The notes under the pieces are model-generated. The model worked only from the letters and a program-made list of their open reading frames with translations. It was not told the DNA's origin and ran no database searches. The position numbers were made by a program, and so were the translations under genes. A stretch of DNA of 50,425 nt, from sequence record SRR22947725_875. One strand, given 5' to 3'. Shown here piece by piece: positions 6,394 through 32,916 of the stretch (position 1 is its first letter; each line of letters opens with the position of its first letter).

Positions 6394-6551
6394 AAAATAT
6401 ATTAAAAACTACTAAATATGGTATTTTTGACAAAAAAAATACACAATAACTTTAAAAAAATTGAAATAAATGTGTCATATCATTTTGATAACAGATAGAA
6501 TTTGTTTATTAAAAATAGAAAGATTTTATTCTTAATTAAGGAGAAAATAAT

Positions 6552-8612: not shown

Positions 8613-8632
8613 GTTAAATTATTAAATTTTAA

Positions 8633-8670
8633 AAAAGCGGCAATTTTTTTATTGCCGCTTTTCTTTTTTT
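8633..8670 (+). terminator. Intercistronic hairpin / intrinsic terminator after SBP gene
   Basis: AAAAGCGGCAAT-tttttt-ATTGCCGCTTTT perfect 12-bp stem followed by a T-rich tract. Confidence 0.8.
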
Positions 8671-8707
8671 AATTATTCTAAATAAGCAATTACGAAAAAT
8701 ACAAATT

Positions 8708-10871: not shown

Positions 10872-10873
10872 TC

Positions 10874-11854
10874 ATGTCCGCATTACTAGATATTAAAAAT
10901 TTAAATGTTCAATTTGATACAGATGAAGGAAGAATTGTAGCTGTAGAAAATATTTCATTATCTGTAAATGCTGGAGAGGTGTTAGGGGTTGTTGGAGAGT
11001 CGGGATCAGGTAAATCTGTTACTGCAAAATCAATTATGCAGTTAAATCCTGGTAACACTCACTATAATGAAGATGCAGAAATTATTATTGATGGAGAAAA
11101 CACTCTTAAGTTTACCTCCAAAGAAGATTTGAAAAAAATTAGGGGTGGTAAAGTGTCAATGATATTTCAAGAGCCTATGGCTAGTTTTGCCCCAGCAATA
11201 AAAATTGGCGCACAGATGGTAGAACAATTACTTTTACATAAACCAATTGATAAAAAAGAAGCAAAATCGATATCTGTTGATATGTTAAAGAGAGTAGGAA
11301 TAGCTGACGCAGAAAAAAGATTTAATCAATATGCTTTTGAATTATCGGGCGGTATGCGCCAAAGAGCTATGATTGCAATGGCTCTATCTACGATGCCAAA
11401 ATTATTATTAGCTGATGAGCCTACAACTGCTCTTGATGTTACAATACAAGCTCAAGTTATAAATTTAATTAAAGATATTATTAAAGAATATCAAATGGGA
11501 GTTATGTTTATTACTCATGATCTAGGTGTAATTGCACAAACAGCTGATAATGTTGCTGTTATGTATTTAGGAGCTATAGTTGAGAAAGGTCCAGTCAGAG
11601 AGATAATTAAAAATCCAAAGCATCCTTATACAAGAGGTTTGTTAAAAGCGCTGCCAGATATAAACAATTTAGATGCTCCACTTCAGCCAATACCTGGAAG
11701 TATCCCAAGTCCTTTGGAGCGTCCAAGTGGTTGTGTATTCAGAACTCGTTGCCCACATCCTACTCAAGAAGGGAAAGAAGGACGAATTAATATGGGCTTA
11801 ATAGAAGTTAGTCCAGGCCATTGGGTAGACCGATGTGGTGTGAATTGTGGATAG
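10874..11854 (+). CDS. ABC transporter ATP-binding protein (OppD/DppD type)
   Basis: Walker A GESGSGKS, LSGGMRQR, ADEPTTALD, ITHDL, HPYT C-terminal domain. Confidence 0.95.
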   Translation: MSALLDIKNLNVQFDTDEGRIVAVENISLSVNAGEVLGVVGESGSGKSVTAKSIMQLNPGNTHYNEDAEIIIDGENTLKFTSKEDLKKIRGGKVSMIFQEPMASFAPAIKIGAQMVEQLLLHKPIDKKEAKSISVDMLKRVGIADAEKRFNQYAFELSGGMRQRAMIAMALSTMPKLLLADEPTTALDVTIQAQVINLIKDIIKEYQMGVMFITHDLGVIAQTADNVAVMYLGAIVEKGPVREIIKNPKHPYTRGLLKALPDINNLDAPLQPIPGSIPSPLERPSGCVFRTRCPHPTQEGKEGRINMGLIEVSPGHWVDRCGVNCG

Positions 11855-11862
11855 GAAAATTT

Positions 11863-12855
11863 ATGAATGATAATCTTGTTAGTGTAAAAAATGTTTCTGT
11901 TGAGTTTGATTATCAAGAAAATTTTCTATCAAAAAAACAGAAAATCCAAGCCGTAAAAAATGTTAGTTTAGATATTAAGAAAAAATCATTTTTAGGTTTA
12001 GTAGGGGAGTCAGGTTCAGGCAAAACAACATTGGGGAAAGCAATATTAGGGGCTAATAAAATTAGTTCTGGACAAGTAATTTTTCATGATGAACATACAG
12101 ACTACGATCTTGCTAATATCAATAAAAAAGAATTAAAAGAGTATAGAAAAAAAGCGCAATTAATATTTCAAGATCCATATGCAGCTTTAAGCCCTAGAAT
12201 GACAGTTAGAGATATTATAGCGGAACCTTTAGAGGTTATGAAAATAACAAAATCTCGTGAAGAAACTGATGAACGAGTAAGAGATATCGCTTCAAAATGT
12301 CGACTAAATCTAGAGCATTTGAGAAGGTACCCTCATGCTTTTTCAGGAGGACAACGTCAAAGAATTTCTATTGCTAGATCACTTGTAAGTTATCCTAAAT
12401 TTATAGTTGCTGATGAGAGTGTTGCCGCTTTAGATGTATCAATTCAGGCTGATATTTTAAATCTATTAAAATCTCTACAAAAAGATTTGGACCTAACTTA
12501 TTTATTTATTAGTCATGATTTAAGTGTTGTTGCGCATACATGTGATGAAGTGGCTGTTATGTATCTCGGGCATATCGTTGAGCAAGCACCATCTAGGGAG
12601 CTTTTTACCAACCCTCGTCATCCATACACAAAAGCACTTTTATCTTCTATTCCTGCTATTGATCCTGATGATCAAAAAAAAGCAATAGAATTAACAGGAG
12701 AAATACCTAGCGCAATGAATCCACCTTCAGGATGTGTCTTTCGAACAAGGTGCCCACATGCTTCACCAGACGGGAAGGAGGCAGGCATCAAAATGGGTTT
12801 AGTAGAAGTTTCACCAGGACATTGGGTAGATCAATGCGGTGTTAATTGTGGGTGA
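11863..12855 (+). CDS. ABC transporter ATP-binding protein (OppF/DppF type)
   Basis: GESGSGKT, FSGGQRQR, ISHDL, HPYT; start moved to ATG 11863, downstream of AGGA and of the previous stop. Confidence 0.93.
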   Translation: MNDNLVSVKNVSVEFDYQENFLSKKQKIQAVKNVSLDIKKKSFLGLVGESGSGKTTLGKAILGANKISSGQVIFHDEHTDYDLANINKKELKEYRKKAQLIFQDPYAALSPRMTVRDIIAEPLEVMKITKSREETDERVRDIASKCRLNLEHLRRYPHAFSGGQRQRISIARSLVSYPKFIVADESVAALDVSIQADILNLLKSLQKDLDLTYLFISHDLSVVAHTCDEVAVMYLGHIVEQAPSRELFTNPRHPYTKALLSSIPAIDPDDQKKAIELTGEIPSAMNPPSGCVFRTRCPHASPDGKEAGIKMGLVEVSPGHWVDQCGVNCG

Positions 12856-13751
12856 AAAATAATCTATTTTTAGCAGTTGTTCTTTCCTTATCTGGGTTAT
12901 TTTTATTAGATTGTATGGGTATTGCCATAAAATACCTTAGAGAAGATTATCCAGCGGCACAATTATCAGTTTTTAGAAATCTGTTTGGAATGATACCGTG
13001 TTTTATTGTTTTATATTTTTCTAAAGACTGGCATGCTAATGGAAGGAAAATAGTAATTAAAAGATGGCGTTTTGGTCTAGCTAGAGGTCTAATTATGTCT
13101 TTTGCACAACTATGTTTATATACTTCTTATCTCTATTTACCTTATGCTTTGGTTGCAACTATGGAGTACACAGGGCCTATGATGATTACGTTATTGGCAA
13201 TACCTCTACTTGGTGAAAAATTTGGATGGTATAAATCTTTAGCCGTATTAACAGGTTTCATAGGTATAATATTTATTATGCAACCTTGGTCTGAAAGCTT
13301 TAATTTTTATATGTTACTTCCTGTAATGGCTGCCTTTGGTTATTCTCTTGCGAGAGTAACAGCTTTAAATTTTTCAAATGATACTCCTGTGCCATTAATA
13401 AATCTTTACGCTAATATAGGAACTTTAATTTGCGCAATACTCTTAGTTATTACATTTAATATGTGGGAAAATTTTAAAAGTTTATATGATTTACTTATAT
13501 TATTTATAATGGGTATAGCAGGTGGTTCAGGGGTATTGTTATTAATTTATGGTTCGAGAAAAGCAGAACTTAGTAAAATTATGCCCTTTGATTATATTGA
13601 AATATTTTTTGCTTTAATTTTAGGGTGGGTATTCTTTAGAGAGTGGCCAGTAGATCAATTATTCCCAGGTGCTTTATTTATAGTCGCTGGGGGAATCATA
13701 ATATATTTACGTCAAATGAATTCTTTAGAAACTAGAGATAGAAAAGTATAA
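12852..13751 (+). CDS. DMT/EamA family transporter
   Basis: About 10 TM helices, LLGEK motif; GTG start overlaps the upstream TGA (GTGA). Confidence 0.85.
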   Translation: MKNNLFLAVVLSLSGLFLLDCMGIAIKYLREDYPAAQLSVFRNLFGMIPCFIVLYFSKDWHANGRKIVIKRWRFGLARGLIMSFAQLCLYTSYLYLPYALVATMEYTGPMMITLLAIPLLGEKFGWYKSLAVLTGFIGIIFIMQPWSESFNFYMLLPVMAAFGYSLARVTALNFSNDTPVPLINLYANIGTLICAILLVITFNMWENFKSLYDLLILFIMGIAGGSGVLLLIYGSRKAELSKIMPFDYIEIFFALILGWVFFREWPVDQLFPGALFIVAGGIIIYLRQMNSLETRDRKV

Positions 13752-14800
13752 TGAAAATTAAAAGAGAAAAAGTAGATAACCCAACTCAACTAAATATAGA
13801 GTCAATTGAAATACATAATGACAATAATTTTAGTTTTAAATTTTATACTTATGGTGGTTACATTCATGAAGTCAAAATACCTTTAAATAATCAAGAAGAT
13901 AAAACAGAAGATGTTTTATTAGGCTACGGAAATATTGATGGAGTTTTAGAGTCTCATGGGTATTTTAATTCTATAGTTGGAAGAGTTGCCAATAGAATAA
14001 GGTCTTCAAAGTTTAATATAGACGATAATGAATATCAACTTTACTCTAATGTTGCTCCCAATCATTTACATGGAGGTAAAGTAGGTTTTAATAAAAAAAT
14101 ATGGAAGATAGAAAATATTGATGAAACAAAAAACTCTATCAAATGTATAATGAAATATTTTTCTCAAGATATGGAAGAAAATTATCCCGGCAATCTTAAT
14201 TGCACTGTTAGCTACGAATTAAATAATAACAATGAACTCTTAATAGATTTTAAGGCAACAACTGATAAAGACACAATTGTAAATATGACTAATCATAATT
14301 ATTGGAATTTTCATGGACATGGAGATCATTATCAAAACAATGAAGATCACATTGTATCGATCAATTCAAAATCAATATGTGAAACAGATGAGCAATCTAT
14401 TCCAACTGGTAAAATTACAAATGTTATGGGGTCAAAATTTGATTTGCAAAAAGATTTTTTAATAAATAAAGATTTTCTCAGCTCTGGTGGTATTGATCAT
14501 AATTATGTTGTAAATGATCAGTCAATGAAAGAATCTGTAGCTAAAATTTATAGCAAAAAAACTGGTTTAGGTGTTGAGTATTTTACAAACCAAAATGGCA
14601 TTCAATTTTATACGGGGAATATGATGTTAAATAAATATATTGGAAAGCACAATAAGTCATATGGCTTGCAACACGGTATGTGTTTAGAGCCTCAGCAATA
14701 TCCAGATGCTATTAATCATCCTAATTTTCCTTCTCCAATTCTTAGAAAAAATAAAAATTATTTATCAAAAATAAAAATTAAATTACGTAACAATTTTTAA
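13751..14800 (+). CDS. galM: Aldose 1-epimerase (mutarotase)
   Basis: GRVANRI, NHLHGG, YPG, NMTNHNYWN, IDHNY, QFYTGN, CLEPQ. Confidence 0.92.
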   Translation: MKIKREKVDNPTQLNIESIEIHNDNNFSFKFYTYGGYIHEVKIPLNNQEDKTEDVLLGYGNIDGVLESHGYFNSIVGRVANRIRSSKFNIDDNEYQLYSNVAPNHLHGGKVGFNKKIWKIENIDETKNSIKCIMKYFSQDMEENYPGNLNCTVSYELNNNNELLIDFKATTDKDTIVNMTNHNYWNFHGHGDHYQNNEDHIVSINSKSICETDEQSIPTGKITNVMGSKFDLQKDFLINKDFLSSGGIDHNYVVNDQSMKESVAKIYSKKTGLGVEYFTNQNGIQFYTGNMMLNKYIGKHNKSYGLQHGMCLEPQQYPDAINHPNFPSPILRKNKNYLSKIKIKLRNNF

Positions 14801-14849
14801 AAAAATAAAATCTTGTTTTATTGTTTTGATGTATTATTAAAGATTTTCT

Positions 14850-15347
14850 ATGAAAATTAGCCAAAAAATAATTACGAATTTAAAATCAGGTGGTGCTGAC
14901 TTTTTTTTGAGTGTTCCATGTAAATTATTGGCGAATATGATTACGATTTTAGAAAATGATAAAGATATTTATTATTCAGCAATTCCAAGAGAAGAAGAAG
15001 GAATGGGAATTTGTGCTGGAGCCTATTTAGGTAATAAACTTCCATGTATTATGATGCAAAATACAGGTATTGGTAATTCAGTAAACTCCATAGTTTCTCT
15101 ACTTCAGTTATATCAAATGCCAGTTGTTTTTCTTATTAGCTACAGAGGTACACCTGGAGAGCCTGTAGGTGCACAAGGTGGCATGGCAAGTGTAACTGAA
15201 GATATTCTAAATACACTCCGAATACCAATGTTGCATTGTAACACTGAAGAAGATCTTGATAAAATTTCTACTTTTACTAATCATGCGAAAGTAATTGAAA
15301 GTCCAGTGGCTGTGTTATGTAATTTTAATATAATGAAAGAAGATTAA
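14850..15347 (+). CDS. comD: Sulfopyruvate decarboxylase alpha subunit
   Basis: SVPC, REEEGMGICAGAYLG, MQNTGIGNSVN, ISYRG..GE; ThDP PYR domain of ComD size. Confidence 0.85.
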   Translation: MKISQKIITNLKSGGADFFLSVPCKLLANMITILENDKDIYYSAIPREEEGMGICAGAYLGNKLPCIMMQNTGIGNSVNSIVSLLQLYQMPVVFLISYRGTPGEPVGAQGGMASVTEDILNTLRIPMLHCNTEEDLDKISTFTNHAKVIESPVAVLCNFNIMKED

Positions 15348-15919
15348 TGATGAATAGATTTGAATTATTAAATCTCTTACAAGATACCATCCAAGAAGAG
15401 CTTGTTGTTTGTAATATTGGTCTTCCATCTCAAGAATTATATAAAATTAACGACCGTCCTAATTATTTTTATATGTTAGGCAGTATGGGTTTAGCTTCTT
15501 CAATTGGTCTAGGTCTTTCTTTAGCGATAGATAAAAATGTTATTAGCATTGATGGAGATGGCTCAGTTTTAATGAATATGAACACACTTGCAACGATTGG
15601 TAATAGGGCACCTTCAAACTATACTCTTTTAATAGTTGATAATGGGTCTTATGGATCAACAGGAGATCAAAAAACTTTTACAAATGAACGAACATCTTTA
15701 AAGGATGTCGCTATAGGAGCTGGTTGTCCTAATGTAATCGAATGCTCTGGAGAAGAAACTAATGAAAATTTACAAAAAGCTCTAGATGATAAAAACAATT
15801 CATATGTTATTATTTCAAAAATAACGTCAGGGAATGTCCCAATAAAACCAATACCTCTTAACGCTGTAACAATAAGAGATCGATTTAGGAAAGAAATAGG
15901 TTTAGTTACTTATCTTTAG
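15347..15919 (+). CDS. comE: Sulfopyruvate decarboxylase beta subunit
   Basis: NIGLPSQELY..DRP.YFYMLGSMGLASSIGLG, GDGS ThDP motif, DNGSYGSTGDQKT; 1-nt overlap with comD. Confidence 0.85.
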   Translation: MMNRFELLNLLQDTIQEELVVCNIGLPSQELYKINDRPNYFYMLGSMGLASSIGLGLSLAIDKNVISIDGDGSVLMNMNTLATIGNRAPSNYTLLIVDNGSYGSTGDQKTFTNERTSLKDVAIGAGCPNVIECSGEETNENLQKALDDKNNSYVIISKITSGNVPIKPIPLNAVTIRDRFRKEIGLVTYL

Positions 15920-15934
15920 TTTTTATAAGGCACT

Positions 15935-16840
15935 ATGATTTATTCAGTAGGTTCAATTTTTCTTGATCATATAATTAAAATTAATTCTTTTCCAAAAAAA
16001 CCAATTAAAGTACTTGCCGAAGGAATTGAAAAAAGACTTGGTGGATCTGCAGCAGTTGCTAGTTTTACTATAAAAAAACTCGGAATAGACTCATCTTTTA
16101 TTGGTAGGTTAGGTGATGATGATGTTTCTAAGTATCTAAAAGAGGAGTTGAATACTTTTAAAATTAAACACAAAGATATTATTACTATTAAGGGCGCTAA
16201 ATCATCCCAGAGTTATGTTTATGAAGATAAGAATGGAGAAAGACTTCTCGCGGCCTTTAATGAAAAAAAATTACTAAATAGTAAAAAATTGCCAAAAATT
16301 TCCTTTGCAAACAATACAACTTTTATGAGCGATTTACGATGGATTGAAGCAACTCTTTATATTGCTAAAAATTGTAAAAAAAATAATTTAATTCAGGTTG
16401 TTGATTTAGATAATTATAAGTTAAACACTAAAATAAAACAAATTGTTGATCTATCTTCTTTTCCGATCTTTTCAGAGACTGGAGCATTTGAGTATACTAA
16501 AATTAAATCGATTATTGGTTCGTTAAAAAAAATGTACTCTAAAAAAAATAAGTTTTATGCCATAACTGCTGGTGAAAAAGGAGTTTATTGGATTGAAAAT
16601 GGAAATATTTTTAACTGCAAGCCTCCTAAAATAAAAGTTGTTGAAACTAATTGTGCTGGAGATGTTTTTCATGGTGCGTTTGCAGCTTTTATTCATCAAA
16701 AACATTCTGTGATGGATACAATGAAATTAGCGACTGCTACCGCTTCATTAAAATGTACAAAAAAGGGAGGTATTTACTCCATACCTTCTTACTCATCTGT
16801 TAAAAAATTTGAAAACAAAATTCAATTAAGAAAAATATAA
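15935..16840 (+). CDS. PfkB-family sugar kinase, sulfofructose kinase (YihV)-like
   Basis: GGSAA, FIGRLGDD, AKSSQS, GER, DLRW, AGDVFHGA, LKCT..GG parallel E. coli YihV as recalled. Confidence 0.75.
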   Translation: MIYSVGSIFLDHIIKINSFPKKPIKVLAEGIEKRLGGSAAVASFTIKKLGIDSSFIGRLGDDDVSKYLKEELNTFKIKHKDIITIKGAKSSQSYVYEDKNGERLLAAFNEKKLLNSKKLPKISFANNTTFMSDLRWIEATLYIAKNCKKNNLIQVVDLDNYKLNTKIKQIVDLSSFPIFSETGAFEYTKIKSIIGSLKKMYSKKNKFYAITAGEKGVYWIENGNIFNCKPPKIKVVETNCAGDVFHGAFAAFIHQKHSVMDTMKLATATASLKCTKKGGIYSIPSYSSVKKFENKIQLRKI

Positions 16841-16844
16841 TTTT

Positions 16845-17768
16845 ATGAAAATACTAATTACAGAATTTATGGAAGATAAAAGTGTAGAAATGCTAAACAG
16901 GAATTTTGATGTTACAGTTGATAAAAGCTTATCCTTAAATCATAACGAGTTAAAAAAAATAATTAGTAATTTCGATATTTTAATTGTTAGGAATAAAACA
17001 CAGGTTAATAAAGAAATATTAGAAAATGCATCAAGCTTAAAATTTATTGGACGCTTAGGGGTTGGTTTAGATAATATTGATACTGAGTATTGTAGAAATA
17101 ATAATATTCATGTTCAGCCAGCAACAGGTATGAATGCAGACTCCGTTGCAGAATATGTGATTAATTGTTCGCTATCTTTGTTAAAAAATATTCCTTTAAT
17201 GCATCAAGAAACTTCTCTTGGAAATTGGCCTAGAACTTCAATTTCTTCAAGAGAATTAAATGGTAAGATATTTGGCTTAATGGGTTTTGGTTTAATTGCT
17301 AAAAAAGTTAGCACTCTGGCTAAAATATTTAATGCTCACATAATTGCTTATGACCCATTTATTGATTCAAATATTGCAAATGAATTTAATATTAAATTAG
17401 TTGATATAAATGAGATCTTCGAACAGGCCAATGTTATTTCTATTCATTTACCTTTAACACCAACAACTCAAAACTTATTAAACTATGATGCTTTTATAAA
17501 AATGCAAAAGCAACCAATTATTATTAATTCCTCCAGAGGGTCTATAATTAATGAAGACGACTTATTGAAAGCTTATGATGAAAAACTAATTTCTGGCTTT
17601 GCTTTAGATGTTTATGAAACTGAGCCAGCACCAAAATTTTTTTTAGATAGTATAAAGAATAATACTAATTGTATTCTTACTCCTCATATTGCTGGAGTTA
17701 CAGAAGAGTCAAATATTAGAGTAAGTGATTTTATTGCAAATTCAGTAAAAGAATTTTTTAAATTATAG
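16845..17768 (+). CDS. slcC: D-2-hydroxyacid dehydrogenase, (S)-sulfolactate dehydrogenase-like
   Basis: ILITEFM, LIVRNKTQV, GRLGVGLDNID, PATG.N..SVAEYV, WPR, TPHIAGVTEESN match SlcC as recalled; clustered with comDE. Confidence 0.72.
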   Translation: MKILITEFMEDKSVEMLNRNFDVTVDKSLSLNHNELKKIISNFDILIVRNKTQVNKEILENASSLKFIGRLGVGLDNIDTEYCRNNNIHVQPATGMNADSVAEYVINCSLSLLKNIPLMHQETSLGNWPRTSISSRELNGKIFGLMGFGLIAKKVSTLAKIFNAHIIAYDPFIDSNIANEFNIKLVDINEIFEQANVISIHLPLTPTTQNLLNYDAFIKMQKQPIIINSSRGSIINEDDLLKAYDEKLISGFALDVYETEPAPKFFLDSIKNNTNCILTPHIAGVTEESNIRVSDFIANSVKEFFKL

Positions 17769-18851
17769 TTTAAACTCTTTCATAAATACAACTCGGTTTT
17801 CTTTTATGGAATATTCAGCTGCTTCACCTATAGCTACTGACATTAGTCCATCTTTTAAAGATACTTCTGGTTTTTTATTTTTTTGAATAGTATCAATAAA
17901 AGCTAAATGTTCAAAATATGTTGATCCATGATGATGTCCTGCGGCTAATATTTCTTTATCAACTTTGACTTTACTTGAATGAGTGATATTATTTTCTCTG
18001 AGGCTAATTTTAACTTCTGATGAGTCCTTTCCTGAAGCACTAGAGGGAACAAATGTTTCTATCTTCCCTTTATCTCCAACAGCAACTATTTCTTCTTGAT
18101 ATTCAGAATTTTCTGCAAACATACATAAATCAAGCATTCCTCGCACACCATTTTCAAAGTCTACTATAACAAATGCATTATCAATAATATCTGGAGTCTT
18201 GCCGTCATATAGTTCTTCTAGATGGTTAACATCCTGATTTCCACTAGCATAAACTTTAGTCGGTTCACTTTGAATAACCAGTCTCATAAGATCAAAAAAG
18301 TGACAACATTTTTCAACTAATGTTCCCCCAGTATTAACTGCAAATCTATTCCAATCATTCACTTTATGTAAAAAAGGAAATCGATGTTCGCGAATAGAAA
18401 GCATTTTTATTTTTCCAATTATACTATTATGAACTTCTTTAATTAATTGCTTTACTGGAGGCATGTATCTGTACTCCATTCCAGTCCAGATTATCTTAGA
18501 ATAATCCTTCGCAAGTAACTCAAATTTTTTACAATCTTCTGTTGTTGTACATAAAGGTTTTTCTATTAATAAATGTTTATTAGTTTTTAAAATGCGCTCT
18601 AATATATTGATGTGTGTAAAATTTGGTGTCGCAATAATATATGCATCTGCAATATTTTTATTTATTAATTCATCTAAATCATTGTAAAATTTTGTAGAGT
18701 TCTTCACTAATGATTTTGATTCGTTTCTTGAATTCTCATTAGTATCACAAATTGCTACAACTTCTGCATTCGCAATTATATTAATATTCTTAATATGTTC
18801 CTGGCCCATAACACCGGTTCCTATAATTCCATATTTTATTGTATTAGTCAT
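17763..18851 (-). CDS. Gfo/Idh/MocA oxidoreductase, probable NAD+-dependent sulfoquinovosidase (SqgA/GH188-like)
   Basis: GIIGTGVMG Rossmann, EKP, EYRY, REHRFPFLHKV..WNRF, GGTLVEKCCHFFDL, GHHHGS. Confidence 0.7.
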   Translation of the reverse strand: MTNTIKYGIIGTGVMGQEHIKNINIIANAEVVAICDTNENSRNESKSLVKNSTKFYNDLDELINKNIADAYIIATPNFTHINILERILKTNKHLLIEKPLCTTTEDCKKFELLAKDYSKIIWTGMEYRYMPPVKQLIKEVHNSIIGKIKMLSIREHRFPFLHKVNDWNRFAVNTGGTLVEKCCHFFDLMRLVIQSEPTKVYASGNQDVNHLEELYDGKTPDIIDNAFVIVDFENGVRGMLDLCMFAENSEYQEEIVAVGDKGKIETFVPSSASGKDSSEVKISLRENNITHSSKVKVDKEILAAGHHHGSTYFEHLAFIDTIQKNKKPEVSLKDGLMSVAIGEAAEYSIKENRVVFMKEFKL

Positions 18852-20224
18852 ATTGTATAAGTTGGTATCTTTAATTGTTTGCCTAAACTTTTTATGTCTT
18901 CAAGCACATCTCCATAAGTAAAACCTACATGATGCTCTAAACCACTTAAAAATAAATTTTTAATTTTTTTATGTGTATTTTTACCTAAACTGATTACTCC
19001 TGAAGTTCCAGAAAAAGAGTTTTTTCTTTTAAGAACCTTTCCATTCATTACAATAAATTTTAATTTATTTTCTGATTTTGAAACACGAAAAATTGTAATA
19101 TCACCTGATTTAAATGCAAAGTTATGCAAAAGTGGCTTTCTTCTATTTGAGTGAATTGTGGCACTAGGTGTATTTTTCTCTGCCATACTAATAGGTGCAA
19201 GTCCACAATGCCAAAAAACAGTAGTATTATCTTTCTGATCCACATCAACAATATCAACTAATAATGCAGGTTTATTATTTAATTGATTTAATATATTGCA
19301 GGTTAAACTTCCAAGAACATCAGCTTCACAGGCAGAGCTTATTTTATTTTCATTCATCATAGCCATTGGTCCGCAAGAAGCACAACCATATTCTGTAAAC
19401 ATCTCAGGCCAACAACGAACAGCAAATGCATCAATATTTTGTGTTTGTTGAATTTTTTCAAGACCATGGAATAATGATATACTTTTATTCAATTCTTTTT
19501 GATTTACATGATTGATGTTTTTAAGGTTTTTGCTTATATTTTTCTTAGTTTCACTGATTTTTTTAATATTAACTTTACTTGAAGTATTAAATAAGCTCTG
19601 CAATTTTATTTTAGTTACGTTTGCAATAAACTTTGATTTTAATTCTTGATTATTAAAATCACAAGTATCAAACCCTTCAGGTCTTTCACCAATTAGACCT
19701 AACTTTGGTTTCTTAAACTTTATTATTTTTTTGTTAACTAATTTTGAATTTATTTTCTTTAAATAATTTTTTTTTGTAAAATTATTATTTGTTCTCATAA
19801 ATTTCAATATTTCTTTAGAAAAAGACTGTTCATCATTGGTGTAAATTATAAAGTTAGAATAAAATTTACTTTTAATTAAAGCATGCAATCCTAAGTTTAC
19901 TCCACAAAGCGAATTTAGCCTTAATCGACCGCCTGATCTCTTTTCTCTAAATGAAATAAATAAAATTGGTTTTCTAAATTTTTTTGCGAATGCAAAAATA
20001 AATTTCGCATCAGTAAAAGTTGATTGAATAACTATAAATTTTTTACATTTAATATTTTTAAAGTATTTAATTGCATTTTTACCAATTGTATCATTAGTTA
20101 TTAAATCATCAAAAAATATTATCTTTTCATTTAATTTTGTAAGTGATTTTTTTGTTTTTAATAATTTTTTCTTAGCAAATTCAATATCAAAAGTTTCTCT
20201 TGCTAAACTAAAGCATCCAATCAT
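18848..20224 (-). CDS. L-fucose/L-arabinose isomerase-fold protein (putative SQ isomerase)
   Basis: NSLCG, AVRCWPE, CEADVLG, FWHCG, C-terminal EHH metal motifs of the FucI/AraA superfamily. Confidence 0.75.
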   Translation of the reverse strand: MIGCFSLARETFDIEFAKKKLLKTKKSLTKLNEKIIFFDDLITNDTIGKNAIKYFKNIKCKKFIVIQSTFTDAKFIFAFAKKFRKPILFISFREKRSGGRLRLNSLCGVNLGLHALIKSKFYSNFIIYTNDEQSFSKEILKFMRTNNNFTKKNYLKKINSKLVNKKIIKFKKPKLGLIGERPEGFDTCDFNNQELKSKFIANVTKIKLQSLFNTSSKVNIKKISETKKNISKNLKNINHVNQKELNKSISLFHGLEKIQQTQNIDAFAVRCWPEMFTEYGCASCGPMAMMNENKISSACEADVLGSLTCNILNQLNNKPALLVDIVDVDQKDNTTVFWHCGLAPISMAEKNTPSATIHSNRRKPLLHNFAFKSGDITIFRVSKSENKLKFIVMNGKVLKRKNSFSGTSGVISLGKNTHKKIKNLFLSGLEHHVGFTYGDVLEDIKSLGKQLKIPTYTI

Positions 20225-21243
20225 TAAAAGCCTTTATAAATATTTTTAAAGTTTGAGGAATTTTTTTGAATTAATTTTTCTGTTAAATATTTTTCTAAAG
20301 ATTGAGCATTTTTTTTTGTGAGTTCATTTAATTTTTTAACATAACCTACACTTTCATTACTAAGCTTTGCAGTAATTTTTTTATAATTTGGATAATCTTT
20401 AAAGGCATCTAGCCAAATAGTTCTGCCAGCTAGATATCCTGAGGCACCATTTTTATAAGCCAACTTTAAACAATTCAAAAAAGACTTCTTACTCATTCCA
20501 GAAGAAAGCATTACCCATGGAATATTTCTTGTAGCTTTAGATAATTGTTTAAAAGCATCTCTTGTAGCTTTATTAAATTTACTATTTTGTAATTGGCTAC
20601 TATCCACAGGACTTTCTAACTTAAAAATATCAACTTTATATTTTTCTTTAGAAAACTCTTTCACACTATTTATTACATGATTTTGATTTTTATCTAGTTG
20701 CTCTTTATAATCTTTAGAATACCCAGTTTCATTTTTAAATGGATAAACCAATAGCTCTAATAAAAAAGGAATATCAAATTTTTCACATTGCTTACCTATT
20801 GTTTCAATATACTTTTTTTGATGTTTAATAGAGTTTTTATCTGCATCAGGTCGATACCAAGCTAATACTTTTACAGCATCACCACCTATTCTTTTTATCT
20901 TTTCAACTGTCCAATTTTTTATATTTTTTGAATACCTGCCTTTGTGTTTTTCAATAAAATCATGATCCTCAAGAGTAATTATTAAACCTTTGCTTTTACT
21001 TGATGGAATAAGATTGGGTACTGAATAAACTGGATCCATTAATATAGCGGTAGAGTGTTGAGAAAGGTTTAACGAGATATTTTTTTTAAAATCTACAACA
21101 TCTTTATAGGTGTATCTTTTTTTTTTCTCTTTTATCAAATTAAATATTGGTGGTCTCTGATCAATTGCGAGCATTTGTAAATGGCTTTGATCATTACACA
21201 ATTTTTTAATATGAACTAGTTTACCAATATTATCAGATCCCAT
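20224..21243 (-). CDS. Class I aldolase, LacD/YihT family (putative sulfofructose-1-phosphate aldolase)
   Basis: MLAIDQR, KVL, LLE, DIFKLE Schiff-base Lys, PWVMLSSG, GASGYLAGRTIW. Confidence 0.82.
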   Translation of the reverse strand: MGSDNIGKLVHIKKLCNDQSHLQMLAIDQRPPIFNLIKEKKKRYTYKDVVDFKKNISLNLSQHSTAILMDPVYSVPNLIPSSKSKGLIITLEDHDFIEKHKGRYSKNIKNWTVEKIKRIGGDAVKVLAWYRPDADKNSIKHQKKYIETIGKQCEKFDIPFLLELLVYPFKNETGYSKDYKEQLDKNQNHVINSVKEFSKEKYKVDIFKLESPVDSSQLQNSKFNKATRDAFKQLSKATRNIPWVMLSSGMSKKSFLNCLKLAYKNGASGYLAGRTIWLDAFKDYPNYKKITAKLSNESVGYVKKLNELTKKNAQSLEKYLTEKLIQKNSSNFKNIYKGF

Positions 21244-21482
21244 TATTTTTTTACCTCTAATTTCTAAAAAATTTATTATTTTTTTGGCTGATTACCATGT
21301 TTTTAATACTGTATTGTATTCATAACTCAAGAATTTATTTTTTTTTAAATTTATTTATTTTTTATTTTAATATCAAATTTAATATTTTTACAATTTTGAT
21401 AATTTTTAGATAATTCATAGCACTTTTTACTCTTGTATATAGTTTAAGTTTGTTCTAAACCTAATAAAAAATTGGAGGACTA

Positions 21483-22739
21483 ATGATTAAATCAATTTTA
21501 AAATTATTTTCAGTAGCTTTTATTTCTTTTTCACTAACTGTAATTTCAACAGTAGCCTCTGCAGAAATTACAATTAACTGGCCGTCAATTTGGGTTGGAA
21601 AAGACTCAAAGACAACAGTTATTGGTGAACTTGTAGATGAATTCAATACTGCAAACGCCGGCTCTATTAAAGTTGTTATAGAAGAACAAACTGATTATGA
21701 CATTTACGCACAAAAATTAACTGCTCAGTTATCTACTGGTACATTACCAGATATATTCACAGTTGGTGCAGACTTATTAGATATTTTGCACAGAAGTGGC
21801 AAAGCTATGGATCTTGCTCCACATGTATCATCTGATTCACATTGGAATAATGTTTACCCAGAAGGAGCACTTGAAAGCAATATGATGGATGGGCAATTAA
21901 ATTATTTACCGTATGAGCTTTTTGTCGTACCCGTAACATATAATAAAAAATTATTAAAAGCTGCTGGTTATGATGAATTTCCAGATAACTATGATGATTT
22001 CTTTAAAATGTGTGAAGCTGTAACTGCTACGGGTGTAGCATGTACATCACAGATGACAGCTAAAAATGCATGGACTTCAATGCTTTGGTTTTCTCAAGCA
22101 TTAGCTTCAGCAGGGGGACCAGACATTTATGAAAAAGGTTTGGATGATCCAGCTTTTGTTAAAGCTTTTGAAGTTATGGAAAAAATGTATCAATATACAA
22201 CTTCTGACGCAATTGGTGCGGATGCTGGTGTTTCAGGTGGCCATTTCTTAAATGAAAGAACTGCAGTTTTCATGAATGGACCTTGGTTCATAGCTCGCTA
22301 CACTTCAGATGGTATACCTGGATTGCATGAAAATATTGGTGTTGCACCAGCTCCAATGCTTATGGGTGGAAAGGGCGCTCCCGGCGGATATGTAGGTGGA
22401 AAGCAATCTTCTCTAGCAGCTGGCAAACAATCTGATCCTGCAAAAGAAGAAGCTGTAGTTAAATTCCTTAAATGGTTAACTACTCCAGAAAATGTTGCAA
22501 GACTATCTTACAGCTCTGGTGCTATGTTTATTGTCAAGGCTGATTTGCCGAGTGATATGGACAGATTATTCATTGAAATGAATGAGCAAAAAGGAAATGC
22601 TCCTTACGTAGCTAAAACATTTATGAATGGCATGGGCTCATTACCAGTTGTTGCTGAATTTCCGCAAGCATTGTCAGCTTTAGCTTTAGGTGAAGTTACA
22701 CCAGAAGGTGCTGTTGAAATGCTTAAAGACGCAGACTAA
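21483..22739 (+). CDS. Carbohydrate ABC transporter substrate-binding protein (family 1)
   Basis: Signal peptide, LPDIF, YNKKLL..AG, MNGPW; SD GGAGG upstream. Confidence 0.9.
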   Translation: MIKSILKLFSVAFISFSLTVISTVASAEITINWPSIWVGKDSKTTVIGELVDEFNTANAGSIKVVIEEQTDYDIYAQKLTAQLSTGTLPDIFTVGADLLDILHRSGKAMDLAPHVSSDSHWNNVYPEGALESNMMDGQLNYLPYELFVVPVTYNKKLLKAAGYDEFPDNYDDFFKMCEAVTATGVACTSQMTAKNAWTSMLWFSQALASAGGPDIYEKGLDDPAFVKAFEVMEKMYQYTTSDAIGADAGVSGGHFLNERTAVFMNGPWFIARYTSDGIPGLHENIGVAPAPMLMGGKGAPGGYVGGKQSSLAAGKQSDPAKEEAVVKFLKWLTTPENVARLSYSSGAMFIVKADLPSDMDRLFIEMNEQKGNAPYVAKTFMNGMGSLPVVAEFPQALSALALGEVTPEGAVEMLKDAD

Positions 22740-22749
22740 AAATCTAAAT

Positions 22750-22781
22750 AACTATGAGGTATTAAATACCTCATAGTTTTC
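22750..22781 (+). terminator. Intercistronic hairpin after SBP gene
   Basis: AACTATGAGGTAT-taa-ATACCTCATAGTT 13-bp perfect stem followed by TT. Confidence 0.75.
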
Positions 22782-22788
22782 TCATTTT

Positions 22789-23661
22789 ATGAAAATTAAA
22801 AAAGATGAAGTTGTATGGCTTTTATTATTTATAGCGCCTACAATAATTTTATTCACTCTCTTTTTTATTATACCAATTCTTTTTCTTTTTATAACAAGCT
22901 TCACTAATTGGGATGGCATAAGTGCTGAATTTGTTGGATTTGAAAACTACGTTAAACTATTTAATAAAAAAAGTTTTATCAATGCTATTACGAATAACTT
23001 ATACTGGTGTGTTACAGCGGCATTAATAACAGTTCCATTAGCTCTGATAATTGCTTTACTTTTAGCTCATAGATCAAGAGGTTGGAAGGTCTTTAGAACA
23101 GTTCTCTTTGTGCCTCAGGTTGTTTCATCAGCTGCTATAGCTATGCTTTGGGCTGCGATGTTTAATGCTGAATATGGTTTAGTTAATTTTTTATTAGATT
23201 ATATCGGTTTCTCAGATTATAAAAATCATAATTGGCTGGGGAACATAAGGACGGCTAATGCAGCATTAATTGGTTTTTCTTTATGTTATGTCGGATATTT
23301 TATGGTTATTATGCTTGCAAAAACTGCTGGTATTTCTGAAGATTATTATGATGCTGCAAATATTGATGGTGCAAGTCAATTTCAAAAGGATTTACATATT
23401 ACGGCACCGTTAATAAAAAGCACTTTTTTTCTTTGTATTATTTTAGCTGTAATATTTAATTTGAGGCAATTCGAATATGTTTATCTAATGACTGCTGGTG
23501 GTCCTGCTAATAAAACTCAGGTTCTTGTTGTTTATATTTGGAATGAGTTAACAGTTCAAAGACTGGGTCGAGGCAATGCAGCCGGAGTTATAATGATAGC
23601 TATAGGTGCTATTCTTTTACTCTCTTTGAGAAAATTATTAAAAAGTGAAACCTACAATTAA
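22789..23661 (+). CDS. Carbohydrate ABC permease (MalF/UgpA type)
   Basis: SFTNWDG, FVGFENY, EAA loop YYDAANIDGAS, MTAGGP. Confidence 0.92.
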   Translation: MKIKKDEVVWLLLFIAPTIILFTLFFIIPILFLFITSFTNWDGISAEFVGFENYVKLFNKKSFINAITNNLYWCVTAALITVPLALIIALLLAHRSRGWKVFRTVLFVPQVVSSAAIAMLWAAMFNAEYGLVNFLLDYIGFSDYKNHNWLGNIRTANAALIGFSLCYVGYFMVIMLAKTAGISEDYYDAANIDGASQFQKDLHITAPLIKSTFFLCIILAVIFNLRQFEYVYLMTAGGPANKTQVLVVYIWNELTVQRLGRGNAAGVIMIAIGAILLLSLRKLLKSETYN

Positions 23662-23662
23662 T

Positions 23663-24499
23663 ATGCAAAAAGATCTTTCCTCAAACTTTTATTTTATTTT
23701 TAAATGGGTAATAATTATTTCTTTTGTATTTTATGCTGTATTTCCTTTTTTATGGTTAGTACTTGCTTCATTGAAAACCAACGCTGAATTACTCAATAAC
23801 CCATTTGCGCTACCTGAAGTTTTTCAGTTTAAAAACTATTCCAATGCTATTCAAGAGGCAGGACTTGGAAGATTAATAATTAATTCTCTTGTAATAAGTA
23901 CTAGTGCAACTTTTTTAAATATTTTGTTTTCATCAATGTGTGCTTTTGCAATAGCCAGACATACATTTTGGGGAAATAATGTTTTGTTTTTAATGATTAC
24001 TGCAGGTATTTTAGTACCATTAAATGCACTTATAATTCCTTATTTTGCAATAATTAATTTTTTAAATCTTTATGATACAAGAATTGGTTTGATTATAGTT
24101 TATTGCGCTGTTGGTCTTCCTGTATCAACATTCATATTAACAGAGTTTTTTAAATCTATCCCAAAGGAAATTGAAGAAGCTTCATATCTTGATGGTTGTA
24201 ATTTTGCTGCAAGATATTTTAAAATTATGCTACCACTTGCTTTACCTGGTTTAGCAACAGCAGGAACATTCCAGTTTATTTTGTGTTGGAATGAATTTAT
24301 ATATGCAATGCTCTTAACTTCCTCAACAGATATTAGAACAATTCAATTTGGTATTAGTTATTTTACTAATCAATTCTTTTCAGATTACGTAGGAATGTTT
24401 GCAGCAGTTGTGATAAGTATTATTCCAAGTATTACCGTTTTTATTCTTTTTCAGGAAAAAGTTATCAATGGTTTAACTGCTGGATCAGTGAAGGGTTAG
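23663..24499 (+). CDS. Carbohydrate ABC permease (MalG/UgpE type)
   Basis: SLKT, IPKEIEEASYLDGC, WNEF, C-terminal GLTAGSVKG; ATG 23663 preferred over GTG 23645. Confidence 0.92.
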   Translation: MQKDLSSNFYFIFKWVIIISFVFYAVFPFLWLVLASLKTNAELLNNPFALPEVFQFKNYSNAIQEAGLGRLIINSLVISTSATFLNILFSSMCAFAIARHTFWGNNVLFLMITAGILVPLNALIIPYFAIINFLNLYDTRIGLIIVYCAVGLPVSTFILTEFFKSIPKEIEEASYLDGCNFAARYFKIMLPLALPGLATAGTFQFILCWNEFIYAMLLTSSTDIRTIQFGISYFTNQFFSDYVGMFAAVVISIIPSITVFILFQEKVINGLTAGSVKG

Positions 24500-24509
24500 A
24501 TAATTTAAA

Positions 24510-25793
24510 TTGACACGTCCCAACATAATTAAAATTATTTGTCATGATATTGGCAAACATCTTGGTTGTTATGGTATAAAATCAGTAAACACTAACTCAA
24601 TTGATAGTTTTGCTAAAGACGGTATTTTATTTAACAATGCATTTGCTACAAGCCCGGGTTGTAGTCCAAGTCGAGCAGCAATAGCAACAGGAAGATATCC
24701 TCATAATACTGGGGTTTTAGGATTAGCACATGCTCATTTTGGGTGGAGTCTTGATAAAAAAATTAAACATATTGCAAAATATTTTTCAAGCAATGACTAT
24801 AATTCAATACTTTTTGGACTCCAACATGTGACTTACAATGAGGAAACTCTTGGTTTCAAGAAAATTTTTCCAGAGAGACCTGCGGATCAAGTCATTAAGA
24901 ATATTGAAGATAATATAGATACTATATTATTTAAAAAACCTTTTTACGCTGAAGTTAATTTTTTTGAACCACATCGACCTTTTGATTTCGGTGGAGTTAA
25001 GTCTTACAGATCTAAAGGTGTATTTATTCCAAAATATATACCCAATAACTCTAATATTAAAAAAGAATTTGAAGCTATGCAAGGGGCAATAAAAAAAATG
25101 GATGAGTCAGTTGGAAAAATTATTAATATTCTTAAGAAGAAAGGTCTTTATGAGAATACAATTATTATATTTACTACAGACCATGGAATACCCTTTCCAA
25201 GAGCAAAAGGAACTTTATATGATGCTGGGATTGAAACTGGTTTAATAATATCTTATCCAAAATTAAAAATCAAAAATAAAAAATTTAATGAATTAATTTC
25301 TAATATTGATATTTTACCAACATTATTAGATTTGGCAAAAATTAAAATACCAAATACCATACAGGGAAAAAGTTTTTATCCATTAATAATGAATAAAAAA
25401 TATATTGAAAATAAACATATATTTGCGGAAAAAACATACCATGATTTATTCGATCCTATTCGATGTATCAGAAATAAAAATTATAAATTAATTATAAATT
25501 TTGACTCAGATAAAATTATAAGAGTGCCAGGTGACGCAATGATGGGCGCTACATATTTATCAATGTTAGATCAAATAATTAATGTAAGAGAACGTTATGA
25601 GCTTTATGATATTAAAAAAGATAAACTGGAAAAGAAAAATTTAGCTAAAAATGAGAAATATAAAAATATAAGACAAGAATTATTGAAAAAGCTTTCTAAT
25701 TGGATGAAGTCTACAAAAGATCCTTTGTTAAGTAATCAAATAAAATCACCTTTTTTTATTGATACATTGAAAGAACTTAAATACTTAACTTAA
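24510..25793 (+). CDS. Sulfatase, N-sulfoglucosamine sulfohydrolase (sulfamidase)-like
   Basis: RPNII..HDIG, CSPSRAAIATGRYPH, EPHRPF, DHGIPFPRAKGTLYDAG; no signal peptide. Confidence 0.85.
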   Translation: MTRPNIIKIICHDIGKHLGCYGIKSVNTNSIDSFAKDGILFNNAFATSPGCSPSRAAIATGRYPHNTGVLGLAHAHFGWSLDKKIKHIAKYFSSNDYNSILFGLQHVTYNEETLGFKKIFPERPADQVIKNIEDNIDTILFKKPFYAEVNFFEPHRPFDFGGVKSYRSKGVFIPKYIPNNSNIKKEFEAMQGAIKKMDESVGKIINILKKKGLYENTIIIFTTDHGIPFPRAKGTLYDAGIETGLIISYPKLKIKNKKFNELISNIDILPTLLDLAKIKIPNTIQGKSFYPLIMNKKYIENKHIFAEKTYHDLFDPIRCIRNKNYKLIINFDSDKIIRVPGDAMMGATYLSMLDQIINVRERYELYDIKKDKLEKKNLAKNEKYKNIRQELLKKLSNWMKSTKDPLLSNQIKSPFFIDTLKELKYLT

Positions 25794-25794
25794 T

Positions 25795-29792: not shown

Positions 29793-29796
29793 AATA

Positions 29797-31808: not shown

Positions 31809-31892
31809 GTATTTTTTTATCGCCTTTATGGATTAATTAATAGTTTTTTTTAATATATTTACATAAACTCAATATGAACATAAGAATGTCAT

Positions 31893-32900: not shown

Positions 32901-32916
32901 TTATACTTAAATAAAA

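Follow-up and report, generated by a model that had tools for sequence, protein, structure and literature searches.

The window analysed here is a stretch of DNA of 50,425 nucleotides (sequence record SRR22947725_875). It carries a group of genes that very probably serves the catabolism of sulfoquinovose glycosides. A first-pass annotation of the same DNA had placed at 13751–24499 a candidate mosaic sulfoquinovose pathway, in which the upper half of sulfoglycolysis of the Embden–Meyerhof–Parnas type (sulfo-EMP) is fused to the oxidation and decarboxylation of sulfolactate. Gene families were assigned by Pfam and NCBIfam. The genes of the region and its flanks are as follows (aa, amino acids; ABC, ATP-binding cassette; DMT, drug/metabolite transporter; PGDH, phosphoglycerate dehydrogenase; FGE, formylglycine-generating enzyme):

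6552–12855, plus strand: Opp/Dpp-type ABC transporter with a 686-aa binding protein, two permeases and two ATPases (Pfam, NCBIfam)
12846–13751, plus strand: EamA/DMT-family membrane transporter (PF00892)
13751–14800, plus strand: aldose 1-epimerase of the GalM type, candidate sulfoquinovose mutarotase (PF01263)
14850–15347, plus strand: ComD, sulfopyruvate decarboxylase alpha subunit (TIGR03845)
15347–15919, plus strand: ComE, sulfopyruvate decarboxylase beta subunit (TIGR03846, PF02775)
15935–16840, plus strand: PfkB-family kinase, candidate sulfofructose kinase, first gene of the island described below (PF00294)
16845–17768, plus strand: D-2-hydroxyacid dehydrogenase of the PGDH (SERA) kind, NAD-type, candidate SlcC-like enzyme (PF02826, PF00389)
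17763–18851, minus strand: SqgA, Gfo/Idh/MocA oxidoreductase, GH188 sulfoquinovosidase (PF01408, PF02894, PF22725; 8qc2/8qc3)
18848–20224, minus strand: SftI-like isomerase with a FucI C-terminal fold (NF048012, PF02952)
20224–21243, minus strand: class I (Schiff-base) aldolase of the DeoC/LacD family, candidate sulfofructose-1-phosphate aldolase (PF01791, PRK12858)
21483–24499, plus strand: CUT1-type sugar ABC importer with a binding protein and two permeases, and with no ATPase gene (Pfam, NCBIfam)
24510–30627, no strand given: sulfatase, FGE-type maturase, 606-aa protein, second sulfatase and PhyH-family dioxygenase (Pfam)
30624–31808: uxuA-like gene, right flank of the island

The plus-strand set, from comD to the dehydrogenase, meets the minus-strand set of aldolase, isomerase and SqgA end to end. 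The first-pass annotation had described these convergent sets as overlapping by 6 nt, with galM ahead of them and a divergent sugar ABC importer, and the list of open reading frames (ORFs) and the sequence confirm this. The overlap lies at 17763–17768, where the sequence reads TTA/TAG and each stop codon covers the last sense codon of the other gene. On the plus strand, comE and the kinase gene are 15 bases apart, and the kinase and dehydrogenase genes are 4 bases apart. The starts of the aldolase gene (21243) and the sugar-binding protein gene (21483) point away from each other, with 239 bp between them. The gene order from the mutarotase to the aldolase is identical in the six related loci that cover the whole stretch (L001–L004, L008 and L009; L and G numbers are our handles for loci and genomes), so the arrangement is not due to chance. 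L009 has a different transporter beyond the aldolase, and three further related loci (L005, L006 and L010) end at contig ends. A scan of 6000–25000 for promoters and terminators was uninformative (94 promoter-like sites against 101 expected; 8 terminator-like sites against 8.2 expected). An index of sequencing runs contained 25–36% of the sampled words in six runs recorded as metatranscriptomic RNA, which we do not count as expression.

The window derives from an uncultured, streamlined alphaproteobacterium of the HIMB59/AEGEAN-169 type, a lineage formerly named SAR11 subclade V. We make this assignment because copies of the isomerase with 85–94% identity occur in single-cell and metagenome genomes labelled “uncultured Alphaproteobacteria”, and because the ferrochelatase of the window is 95% identical to that of “Pelagibacterales bacterium SAG-MED31”, 84% to that of the metagenome-assembled genome (MAG) HIMB59-LRMED-199 and 66–69% to those of MarineAlpha5 MAGs. 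The G+C content is approximately 29%. The nearest genome compared, G001, has 23% of the 31-mers of the window in common with it. For the distribution of the genes, we surveyed 116 species genomes of the HIMB59/AEGEAN-169 group, called the family below.

The oxidoreductase at 17763–18851 is identified from its sequence as the NAD-dependent sulfoquinovosidase SqgA of family GH188, as had been proposed, and this family identity is well supported. Among the solved NAD-dependent sulfoquinovosidases, it matches 8qc2 with an E-value of 1.7e-110 and 8qc3 with 2.8e-110 over residues 3–356 of 362. Eight SqgA residues that contact sulfoquinovose were named by Kaur et al. (2023, PMC10755693), and all of them are kept in a HMMER alignment. 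These are the sugar and catalytic contacts Lys107, Tyr136, Glu189, His193 and His321, and the sulfonate triad of Arg166, Leu170 (through its backbone) and Lys172 (ArSqgA numbering, with an offset of 13 derived from the printed chain). The stretch EHRFPFLHK is identical in the query and the chain. The homolog FlSqgA is reported to be specific for sulfoquinovosides (PMC10755693). The enzyme of the window should release sulfoquinovose from sulfoquinovosyl glycerol.

The putative mutarotase matches PF01263 (E 4e-72) and falls below the cut-off of TIGR02636. It is GalM-like and shares only 19% identity (E 3e-4) with E. coli YihR. The isomerase is of the FucI/SftI type, as the earlier label of a FucI-fold isomerase had it: the SftI model NF048012 is its sole NCBIfam match (E 5e-89), PF02952 also matches, and no solved relative is found by sequence at E 0.001. 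The best solved relative of the kinase is E. coli YihV (7ag6, E 2e-38). In an alignment with K-12 YihV, the kinase keeps Asp13, Lys27, Ser95, Arg138 and the catalytic Asp244 of the GXGD motif. The published sulfonate triad of YihV is Lys-Arg-Asn (Lys27, Arg138, Asn109; PMC8006165), and the Pseudothioglobus ortholog of the kinase has Asn at the Arg138 position. The aldolase scores 323 bits with PRK12858 (cut-off 184) and matches PF01791. It keeps the Schiff-base Lys193 of YihT and the residues Arg253, Ser226 and Ser227 of its anion pocket, which tagatose-bisphosphate aldolases may share. The family identity behind the predicted sulfofructose-kinase step is well supported, and the predicted isomerase and aldolase steps have moderate support.

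As a whole, the upper set is of a known kind, a “hybrid sulfo-EMP1/2” set in which a mutarotase, kinase and aldolase of the sulfo-EMP1 type are combined with an isomerase of the sulfo-EMP2 type. Such hybrid clusters were reported across Proteobacteria and Actinobacteria (Sharma et al. 2023, J Biol Chem, PMC10665668). The combination had been called unfamiliar among described clusters. Since the upper half is already known, that holds only for the lower join and the host lineage.

The lower half begins with the two decarboxylase subunits. ComD scores 155.5 bits with TIGR03845, over the curated cut-off of 147.95, and 98.4 bits with the phosphonopyruvate decarboxylase model. ComE scores 218.0 bits with TIGR03846, which is 3.5 bits under its own cut-off of 221.5, and 125.4 bits with the phosphonopyruvate decarboxylase model. 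The naming of the pair as ComDE thus passes the curated threshold for one subunit and narrowly misses it for the other. The ComE translation carries a GDG...DNG stretch, which we take to be the thiamine-diphosphate motif. The family identity of the pair as a probable sulfopyruvate decarboxylase is well supported.

The D-2-hydroxyacid dehydrogenase is a short enzyme of the PGDH type, and among solved structures the type IIIH PGDH 1wwk is closest to it. The Arg, Glu and His columns, which we read as the catalytic triad, are invariant in the alignment, as is the glycine-rich loop of the NAD type. An ortholog is found only alongside the island, for example in G080 (with island, 59% identity), and the best matches in G098, G070, G032 and G063, all without a SqgA match, are paralogs with 35–39% identity. 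A profile search with an alignment of six of these dehydrogenases returned 80 loci, whose neighbouring genes were typed by tblastn of marker proteins. SuyB- and/or ComC-like neighbours, that is, a sulfolactate module, are present at 48 of the 80 loci, one of them in a Halomonas, and 10 of these 48 also carry sulfosugar genes. comDE is present at 10 loci, namely four of the HIMB59 type, L123, L135, and L111, L151, L152 and L159, the last four with comDE and no sulfosugar genes in the available flank. Sulfosugar genes alone are found at 14 loci and none of the markers at 8. The name SlcC given to the dehydrogenase in the first-pass annotation goes beyond the sequence, by which the enzyme is simply PGDH-like. 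It is a candidate for the SlcC function on account of its gene neighbours and not of orthology.

A quick maximum-likelihood tree of 96 dehydrogenase sequences, which gave warnings on long branches and skewed composition, puts the enzyme of the window in a supported clade of 17 rows with proteins of the HIMB59 type, Pelagibacter and Pseudothioglobus. The clade itself is long-branched. The characterised SlcC lies in or beside the SERA clade (PMC6303947).

Two further steps would be encoded elsewhere in the genome. Among the 49 ORFs of the window, no PF00171 protein and no match to the YihU-type reductase family was found at E 1e-5 or better. Xsc is found over its curated cut-off in G001 and in five of five good cluster-carrying genomes. 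The same five have a succinate semialdehyde dehydrogenase of the GabD type over its cut-off, a PTA_PTB protein and TauE-family proteins. In G003, G039 and G091, Xsc and the cluster share a contig and are 39–46 kb apart. The GabD of G001 shares 53–59% identity with GabD homologs that lie inside the sulfosugar clusters of other bacteria; with the copy from a Marinicaulis cluster as a second query, these homologs show 56–59%. Against the solved 8c54 it gives 2e-166, and E. coli GabD matches more strongly. The GabD of Ruegeria pomeroyi is reported to oxidise sulfolactaldehyde (PMC11131964). A PF00174 molybdoenzyme, present in all five genomes, was considered as sulfite dehydrogenase and rejected as too short and too generic.

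The surroundings of Xsc were also inspected in G003 (L086, G003:C1:84000-100000). Next to Xsc lie a convergent GMC (choline-dehydrogenase-like) oxidoreductase gene and genes for a tripartite ATP-independent periplasmic (TRAP) transporter, presumably a unit of the isethionate type for uptake and oxidation, and a DddP-like dimethylsulfoniopropionate lyase gene follows a few kb on.

Taken together, these genes would allow the following route. An ABC system would import sulfoquinovose or sulfoquinovosyl glycerol, SqgA would free the sugar from its glycoside, and the GalM-type epimerase would equilibrate the anomers. The SftI-like isomerase would convert sulfoquinovose to sulfofructose, the YihV-like kinase would convert this to sulfofructose-1-phosphate, and the class I aldolase would split the phosphate into dihydroxyacetone phosphate, for carbon use, and (S)-sulfolactaldehyde. 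A GabD-type aldehyde dehydrogenase encoded elsewhere may then oxidise sulfolactaldehyde to (S)-sulfolactate, and the PGDH-like dehydrogenase of the island may oxidise sulfolactate to sulfopyruvate; both assignments draw on gene context and on such enzymes in other bacteria. ComDE would decarboxylate sulfopyruvate to sulfoacetaldehyde, and Xsc would convert this to acetyl phosphate and sulfite.

On balance, we favour the view that the region is a sulfoquinovose utilisation island, inserted directly behind core sulfopyruvate decarboxylase genes, with a full tandem route to sulfite. Given the role of the island in sulfoquinovose breakdown, it is plausible that the SlcC-like dehydrogenase couples it to ComDE and Xsc, and the conserved and recurrent linkage of the genes supports this.

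The genes from the kinase through PhyH (15919–30628) are a 14.7-kb insertion of 13 genes behind a core oppABCDF-EamA-galM-comDE operon. This follows from relatives without a SqgA match (G098, G070 and G032; 82–88% complete), in which oppABCDF-EamA-galM-comD-comE runs directly into the uxuA-like gene, and from break points at 15918/15926 and 30629 of the window in DNA alignments with island-less relatives. The island encodes the kinase, dehydrogenase, SqgA, isomerase, aldolase, ABC importer, two sulfatases, FGE maturase, 606-aa protein and PhyH protein. Part of the fusion of two halves that had been claimed is an insertion next to comDE, because galM and comDE are present without the island.

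SqgA was found in 70 of the 116 family genomes (7 of the 11 of high quality) and the isomerase in 66, adjoining SqgA in the rows compared. ComE was found in 87, and in 20 of them SqgA was not found. In 63 of the 67 genomes with both SqgA and ComE, the two lie on one contig at most 5 kb apart; in the other four, SqgA and/or ComE lie less than 1 kb from a contig start. The linkage persists while the identity of SqgA to that of the window drops from 94% to 60%.

The order comD-comE-dehydrogenase-SqgA also persists in another genus, in G108. The stretch examined there (L078, G108:C2:29000-48900) carries genes for a G3P-dehydrogenase-like protein, an ABC importer, a GH31 protein (804 aa), ComD, ComE, the dehydrogenase, SqgA, a second ABC importer, a class I fructose-bisphosphate aldolase (PF00274), a Gfo/Idh/MocA oxidoreductase, an aldo-keto reductase and LacI. 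The isomerase and kinase were not found in this stretch. With its two glycosidase types, G108 perhaps uses a different cleavage route.

The same join is present in two Rhodobacterales MAGs. The gene order is sqgA-galM-gabD-dehydrogenase-comD-comE in L123, with the missing gabD in line, and aldolase-isomerase-sqgA-dehydrogenase-comD-comE in L135. The dehydrogenase gene directly follows gabD in L123 and in several roseobacter loci. The same mosaic has arisen or spread outside HIMB59, and no other finding supports the proposed chain as strongly. The joining of sulfosugar genes with the dehydrogenase and ComDE, first noted in this one stretch, is therefore conserved across the genus and recurs beyond it.

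Related combinations are found in other lineages. A complete Pseudothioglobus genome has the order DeoR-aldolase-isomerase-SqgA-kinase-dehydrogenase, with a glycerol kinase and an ABC system. In a Marinicaulis MAG, the dehydrogenase gene lies with genes for YeiH, ComC-like and SuyB-like proteins, GabD, the kinase, aldolase, isomerase, GH31 and SorA. Eight loci of named Pelagibacter or Pelagibacteraceae genomes, among them HTCC8051 and HIMB1495, carry the dehydrogenase at 57–59% identity, and in seven of them (L087–L089 and L091–L094) it is paired with a convergent SqgA homolog of 61–63% identity. In L093 (9995–11993) of Ca. Pelagibacter ubique HTCC8051, the ends of the two genes overlap by 8 nt. 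Their neighbours in HTCC8051 are an aldehyde dehydrogenase, an HpaI-type aldolase (the aldolase family of the sulfo-Entner–Doudoroff (ED) route), a PanE-like reductase, a TRAP transporter, iolD/E/G and proteins of unassigned family; the isomerase, kinase and comDE were not seen at this locus. The pair could belong to another sulfoquinovose route in SAR11.

A separate observation concerns ten loci (L110, L115, L120, L130, L133, L137, L139, L145, L147 and L011) in which genes of the sulfo-EMP type (SftI-like isomerase, LacD-like aldolase, PfkB kinase, and SqgA or GH31) are joined to SuyB-, ComC- and SlcC-like genes. Their hosts are many Rhizobiaceae, Steroidobacteraceae, Woeseia, Marinobacter and unclassified proteobacteria, and some of the loci also have GabD, YeiH or SorA. 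Tandem clusters of sulfoglycolysis and sulfolactate lyase look widespread in genomes.

The remaining genes of the island and its flanks were examined as well. The CUT1-type importer is a candidate for the uptake of sulfoquinovose or its glycerol glycoside. The Opp-type transporter lies upstream of EamA-galM-comDE both with and without the island, and the EamA gene is always between oppF and galM; its product is possibly a sulfonate exporter or importer. Even in relatives without sulfosugar genes, sulfopyruvate decarboxylase is thus accompanied by an Opp-type importer, a DMT transporter and an aldose mutarotase. The 606-aa protein has no Pfam or NCBIfam match, and in the Atlas it lies near unnamed clusters and clusters carrying DUF6259 or GH123_N. 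The content of the second half of the island suggests a sulfated-glycan function that travels with the sulfoquinovose genes. A third sulfatase gene (513 aa, 4852–6393) lies just upstream of the opp operon on the opposite strand. A second small stretch without a counterpart in island-less relatives lies at 31817–33125 and includes an aldo-keto reductase gene (31893–32900).

Several findings in this and the next two paragraphs weigh against a full tandem route from sulfoquinovose. The isomerase scores 298.9 bits with the SftI model, under the curated cut-off of 700. In the kinase, Asn109 of the YihV triad aligns with Ala, and an Asn follows two positions later. The solved relatives of the aldolase are 8tnf (a “DUF2090 domain-containing protein”, 2e-75), tagatose-bisphosphate aldolases (approximately 1e-35) and YihT (3e-16), in this order, and the enzyme is nearer to the tagatose type. 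Of the YihV and YihT types claimed at first, the former therefore stands for the kinase and the latter fits the aldolase poorly. The LacD-like aldolase is also absent from most cluster-carrying relatives; it is found in only 9 of the 116 family genomes, against 66 for the isomerase, and adjoins the isomerase in 8 of the 9. In G003, no further match, and no aldolase, lies beyond the SftI-like isomerase on that side of the cluster, and in G016 the binding protein directly follows the isomerase with no aldolase between them; G080 (96% complete) has no match to the cluster aldolase anywhere in its genome. The sugar-binding protein matches only generic sugar-binding proteins among solved structures (best E 4e-16), and no particular sugar is indicated. 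In the lower half, the dehydrogenase is about as similar to the SerA-like paralogs (35–39%) as to its SuyAB/ComC-linked relatives (37–45%). The backbone of the tree that joins its clade, the SerA-like paralogs including E. coli SerA, and the SuyAB/ComC-linked groups is open; with the long branches and skewed composition, this led us to reject the tree as proof of SlcC orthology. ComE was not found in the complete Pseudothioglobus genome, despite the same dehydrogenase in a sulfosugar operon.

Because the LacD-like aldolase occurs in few genomes, most cluster-carrying relatives would need another one. The class I fructose-bisphosphate aldolase (PF00274) was rejected as a substitute, being present in one of five genomes. 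Class II aldolases (PF01116) occur in 41 of the 47 genomes of at least 80% completeness, mostly in two copies and regardless of the island, and gave no specific candidate as a group. In four good genomes, a 276-aa class II aldolase (PF01116) is encoded approximately 1 kb from a 244-aa TauE-family membrane protein (G039:C1:229135-231614, G080:C5:67258-69737, G051:C7:11148-13627 and G091:C7:2734-5213). This 276-aa protein is a candidate sulfofructose-phosphate aldolase of the relatives without the cluster aldolase.

Three other explanations were weighed. The region may hold two separate, neighbouring systems, with sulfoglycolysis encoded by the island and its C3 sulfonate excreted, and with ComDE serving imported sulfolactate, 2,3-dihydroxypropane-1-sulfonate (DHPS) or cysteate; the site downstream of comE would then be an insertion spot for islands. 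The core opp-EamA-galM-comDE operon does exist without the island, its flanks being kept in the island-less loci L074, L075 and L079, galM included. ComE is the more frequent of the two markers (87 against 70 for SqgA). ComDE has a role of its own, because comDE and galM sit in the same place in genomes without sulfosugar genes and ComE occurs in 20 genomes without a SqgA match, and its adjacency to the island could reflect an insertion hot spot. The sulfatase genes of the island look unrelated, and most described sulfoglycolytic bacteria excrete the C3 sulfonate. The cluster has no gene for the oxidation of sulfolactaldehyde to sulfolactate, and the link between the halves depends on an unlinked gene of the housekeeping type. 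The claim that the cluster by itself takes sulfoquinovose to sulfoacetaldehyde is incomplete on this account, since a GabD-type enzyme from elsewhere is needed. Catabolism of DHPS and sulfolactate via sulfopyruvate has also been proposed for SAR11 and roseobacters (PMC11131964, PMC12330013). However, the PGDH-like dehydrogenase travels with the island and not with comDE, and its gene lies between those of the kinase and SqgA, 4 bases after the former. The order comDE-dehydrogenase-SqgA is kept in a second genus, and the same join is found in Rhodobacterales, with gabD in L123. Two unconnected systems are, in our judgement, unlikely.

It is less likely still that the dehydrogenase is no sulfolactate dehydrogenase, and that it instead handles sulfolactaldehyde, for example by reduction to DHPS in place of YihU or SlaB, or acts on some other 2-hydroxy or 2-oxo acid. 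The invariant loop of the NAD type and the invariant Arg, Glu and His columns speak against this, as does the activity of the family on 2-hydroxy acids and the position of the characterised SlcC in or beside the SERA clade (PMC6303947). The relatives with 37–45% identity lie overwhelmingly beside ComC-, SuyB- or ComDE-like genes, and the gene directly follows gabD in L123 and several roseobacter loci. On the other side, the dehydrogenase is the sole extra redox enzyme in the Pseudothioglobus operon, which is without SlaB, YihU and ComDE, it pairs with SqgA in Pelagibacter loci without comDE nearby, and the tree does not put it inside the SuyAB/ComC-linked group. Least likely of the three, in our estimate, is another substrate, either a different sulfosugar, such as sulfofucose, that is broken down along a tagatose-like route, or a hexose, sulfated or neutral, that the sulfatases of the island set free. 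This would fit an aldolase nearest to tagatose-1,6-bisphosphate aldolases, a mutarotase that is GalM-like and not YihR-like, and an island that encodes two sulfatases along with an FGE maturase and perhaps a glycoside hydrolase. The literature has also discussed a sulfotagatose route, which was not found active in the part of the paper available (PMC12421959). Yet the residues that bind the 4-OH and sulfonate of sulfoquinovose are conserved in SqgA, FlSqgA is reported to be sulfoquinovoside-specific (PMC10755693), and in other lineages the same aldolase subfamily clusters with GH31 or SqgA and an SftI-like isomerase. The presence of ComDE and of a dehydrogenase of the sulfolactate type also agrees with a sulfonate substrate and not with a sulfate ester. 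Ordinary catabolism of galactose or tagatose, with ComDE as some other decarboxylase, was rejected on the residue pattern of SqgA and the model scores of ComD and ComE.

If the tandem route from sulfoquinovose to sulfite is correct, the cell would gain all six sugar carbons, and possibly the sulfur, without a partner organism. In this abundant pelagic family of streamlined bacteria, 70 of the 116 genomes carry SqgA-based clusters, which lie in physical linkage with a desulfonation branch. Marine sulfoquinovose compounds are estimated at approximately 1.5 Pg C per year, and Alteromonadaceae and Roseobacteraceae are named as their principal marine consumers (PMC12780224). Pelagibacter is depicted as feeding on short sulfonates as a secondary consumer (PMC13436972). 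We put forward only tentatively, as a possibility that we would not yet call probable, that streamlined oligotrophs of the open ocean (AEGEAN-169/HIMB59 and some true Pelagibacter) are primary consumers of sulfoquinovose glycosides, which they would mineralise to sulfite in one cell through hybrid sulfo-EMP, GabD, the SlcC-like dehydrogenase, ComDE and Xsc. These lineages would then account for a share of the marine sqgA signal that is now assigned to roseobacters. Pelagibacter is included because of its conserved dehydrogenase/SqgA gene pair. The AEGEAN-169 group has been described as having an “expanded sugar metabolism”, whose entry into glycolysis was called unclear (PMC10308909), and the sulfoquinovose island may explain part of it.

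A literature search did not find HIMB59/AEGEAN-169 linked to sulfoquinovose, nor did it turn up this tandem route; supplements lay outside the search, so a prior listing of such clusters is possible. Sulfoquinovose catabolism is not assigned to SAR11-like bacteria in the available parts of PMC12330013, PMC11131964, PMC10504371 and PMC13436972. In a sulfoquinovose paper that also names sulfopyruvate decarboxylase, ComDE appears only in a legend on known DHPS pathways (PMC12330013, available part). The main text of the AEGEAN-169 genome papers examined holds no word beginning with “sulfo”, and “sulfopyruvate” is absent from the 2026 reviews examined.

None of the parts of the proposed route comes from a new family. 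The novelty lies in their tandem arrangement, and in finding it as a flexible island that is common in an abundant pelagic lineage of streamlined bacteria. For the upper half, the nearest systems are the sulfo-EMP cluster with SqgA of Arthrobacter sp. AK01 (PMC10755693) and the hybrid clusters (PMC10665668), which use the same families PF01263, PF00294, PF01791 and PF02952. The window has a GH188 SqgA in place of a GH31 sulfoquinovosidase. Described sulfo-EMP clusters carry YihU or SlaB/GabD, and the C3 sulfonate is their end product, whereas the window has the SlcC-like dehydrogenase and ComDE instead. Its aldolase is LacD-like and not close to YihT, and its host, unlike those of the described sulfo-EMP clusters, is a streamlined pelagic alphaproteobacterium.

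For the lower half, the likeness is to the degradation of sulfolactate by way of sulfopyruvate, ComDE and Xsc, a pathway reportedly first described in Roseovarius nubinhibens. The chain from sulfolactate through sulfopyruvate and sulfoacetaldehyde to acetyl phosphate and sulfite is the same as in published sulfolactate/DHPS degradation (PMC12330013). That pathway imports its C3 sulfonate, whereas in the window the sulfosugar-linked genes would make the substrate inside the cell. The dehydrogenase of the window is of the soluble PGDH-like type and is not the SlcD of the ComDE/Xsc sulfolactate pathway. In the SlcC-ComC-SuyAB module of Chromohalobacter salexigens (PMC6303947, PMC12421959), SlcC is SERA/PGDH-like, as is the dehydrogenase of the window. 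Unlike in that module, the gene has neither ComC nor SuyAB beside it.

The closest parallel to the arrangement as a whole is Paracoccus wurundjeri (Stewart et al. 2025, mBio, PMC12421959), in which the splitting of a sulfosugar and the mineralisation of sulfolactaldehyde take place in one bacterium, a combination that the authors call “unusual”. As in the window, an SlcC homolog lies in the cluster, and in the available part of that paper no sulfolactaldehyde dehydrogenase of the SlaB/GabD type was found in it either. The two systems differ in chemistry. P. wurundjeri uses sulfofucose, cleavage of the ED type, and racemisation by SlcC and ComC followed by the SuyAB lyase (PMC12421959), whereas the bacterium of the window is of the EMP type and would use ComDE and Xsc.

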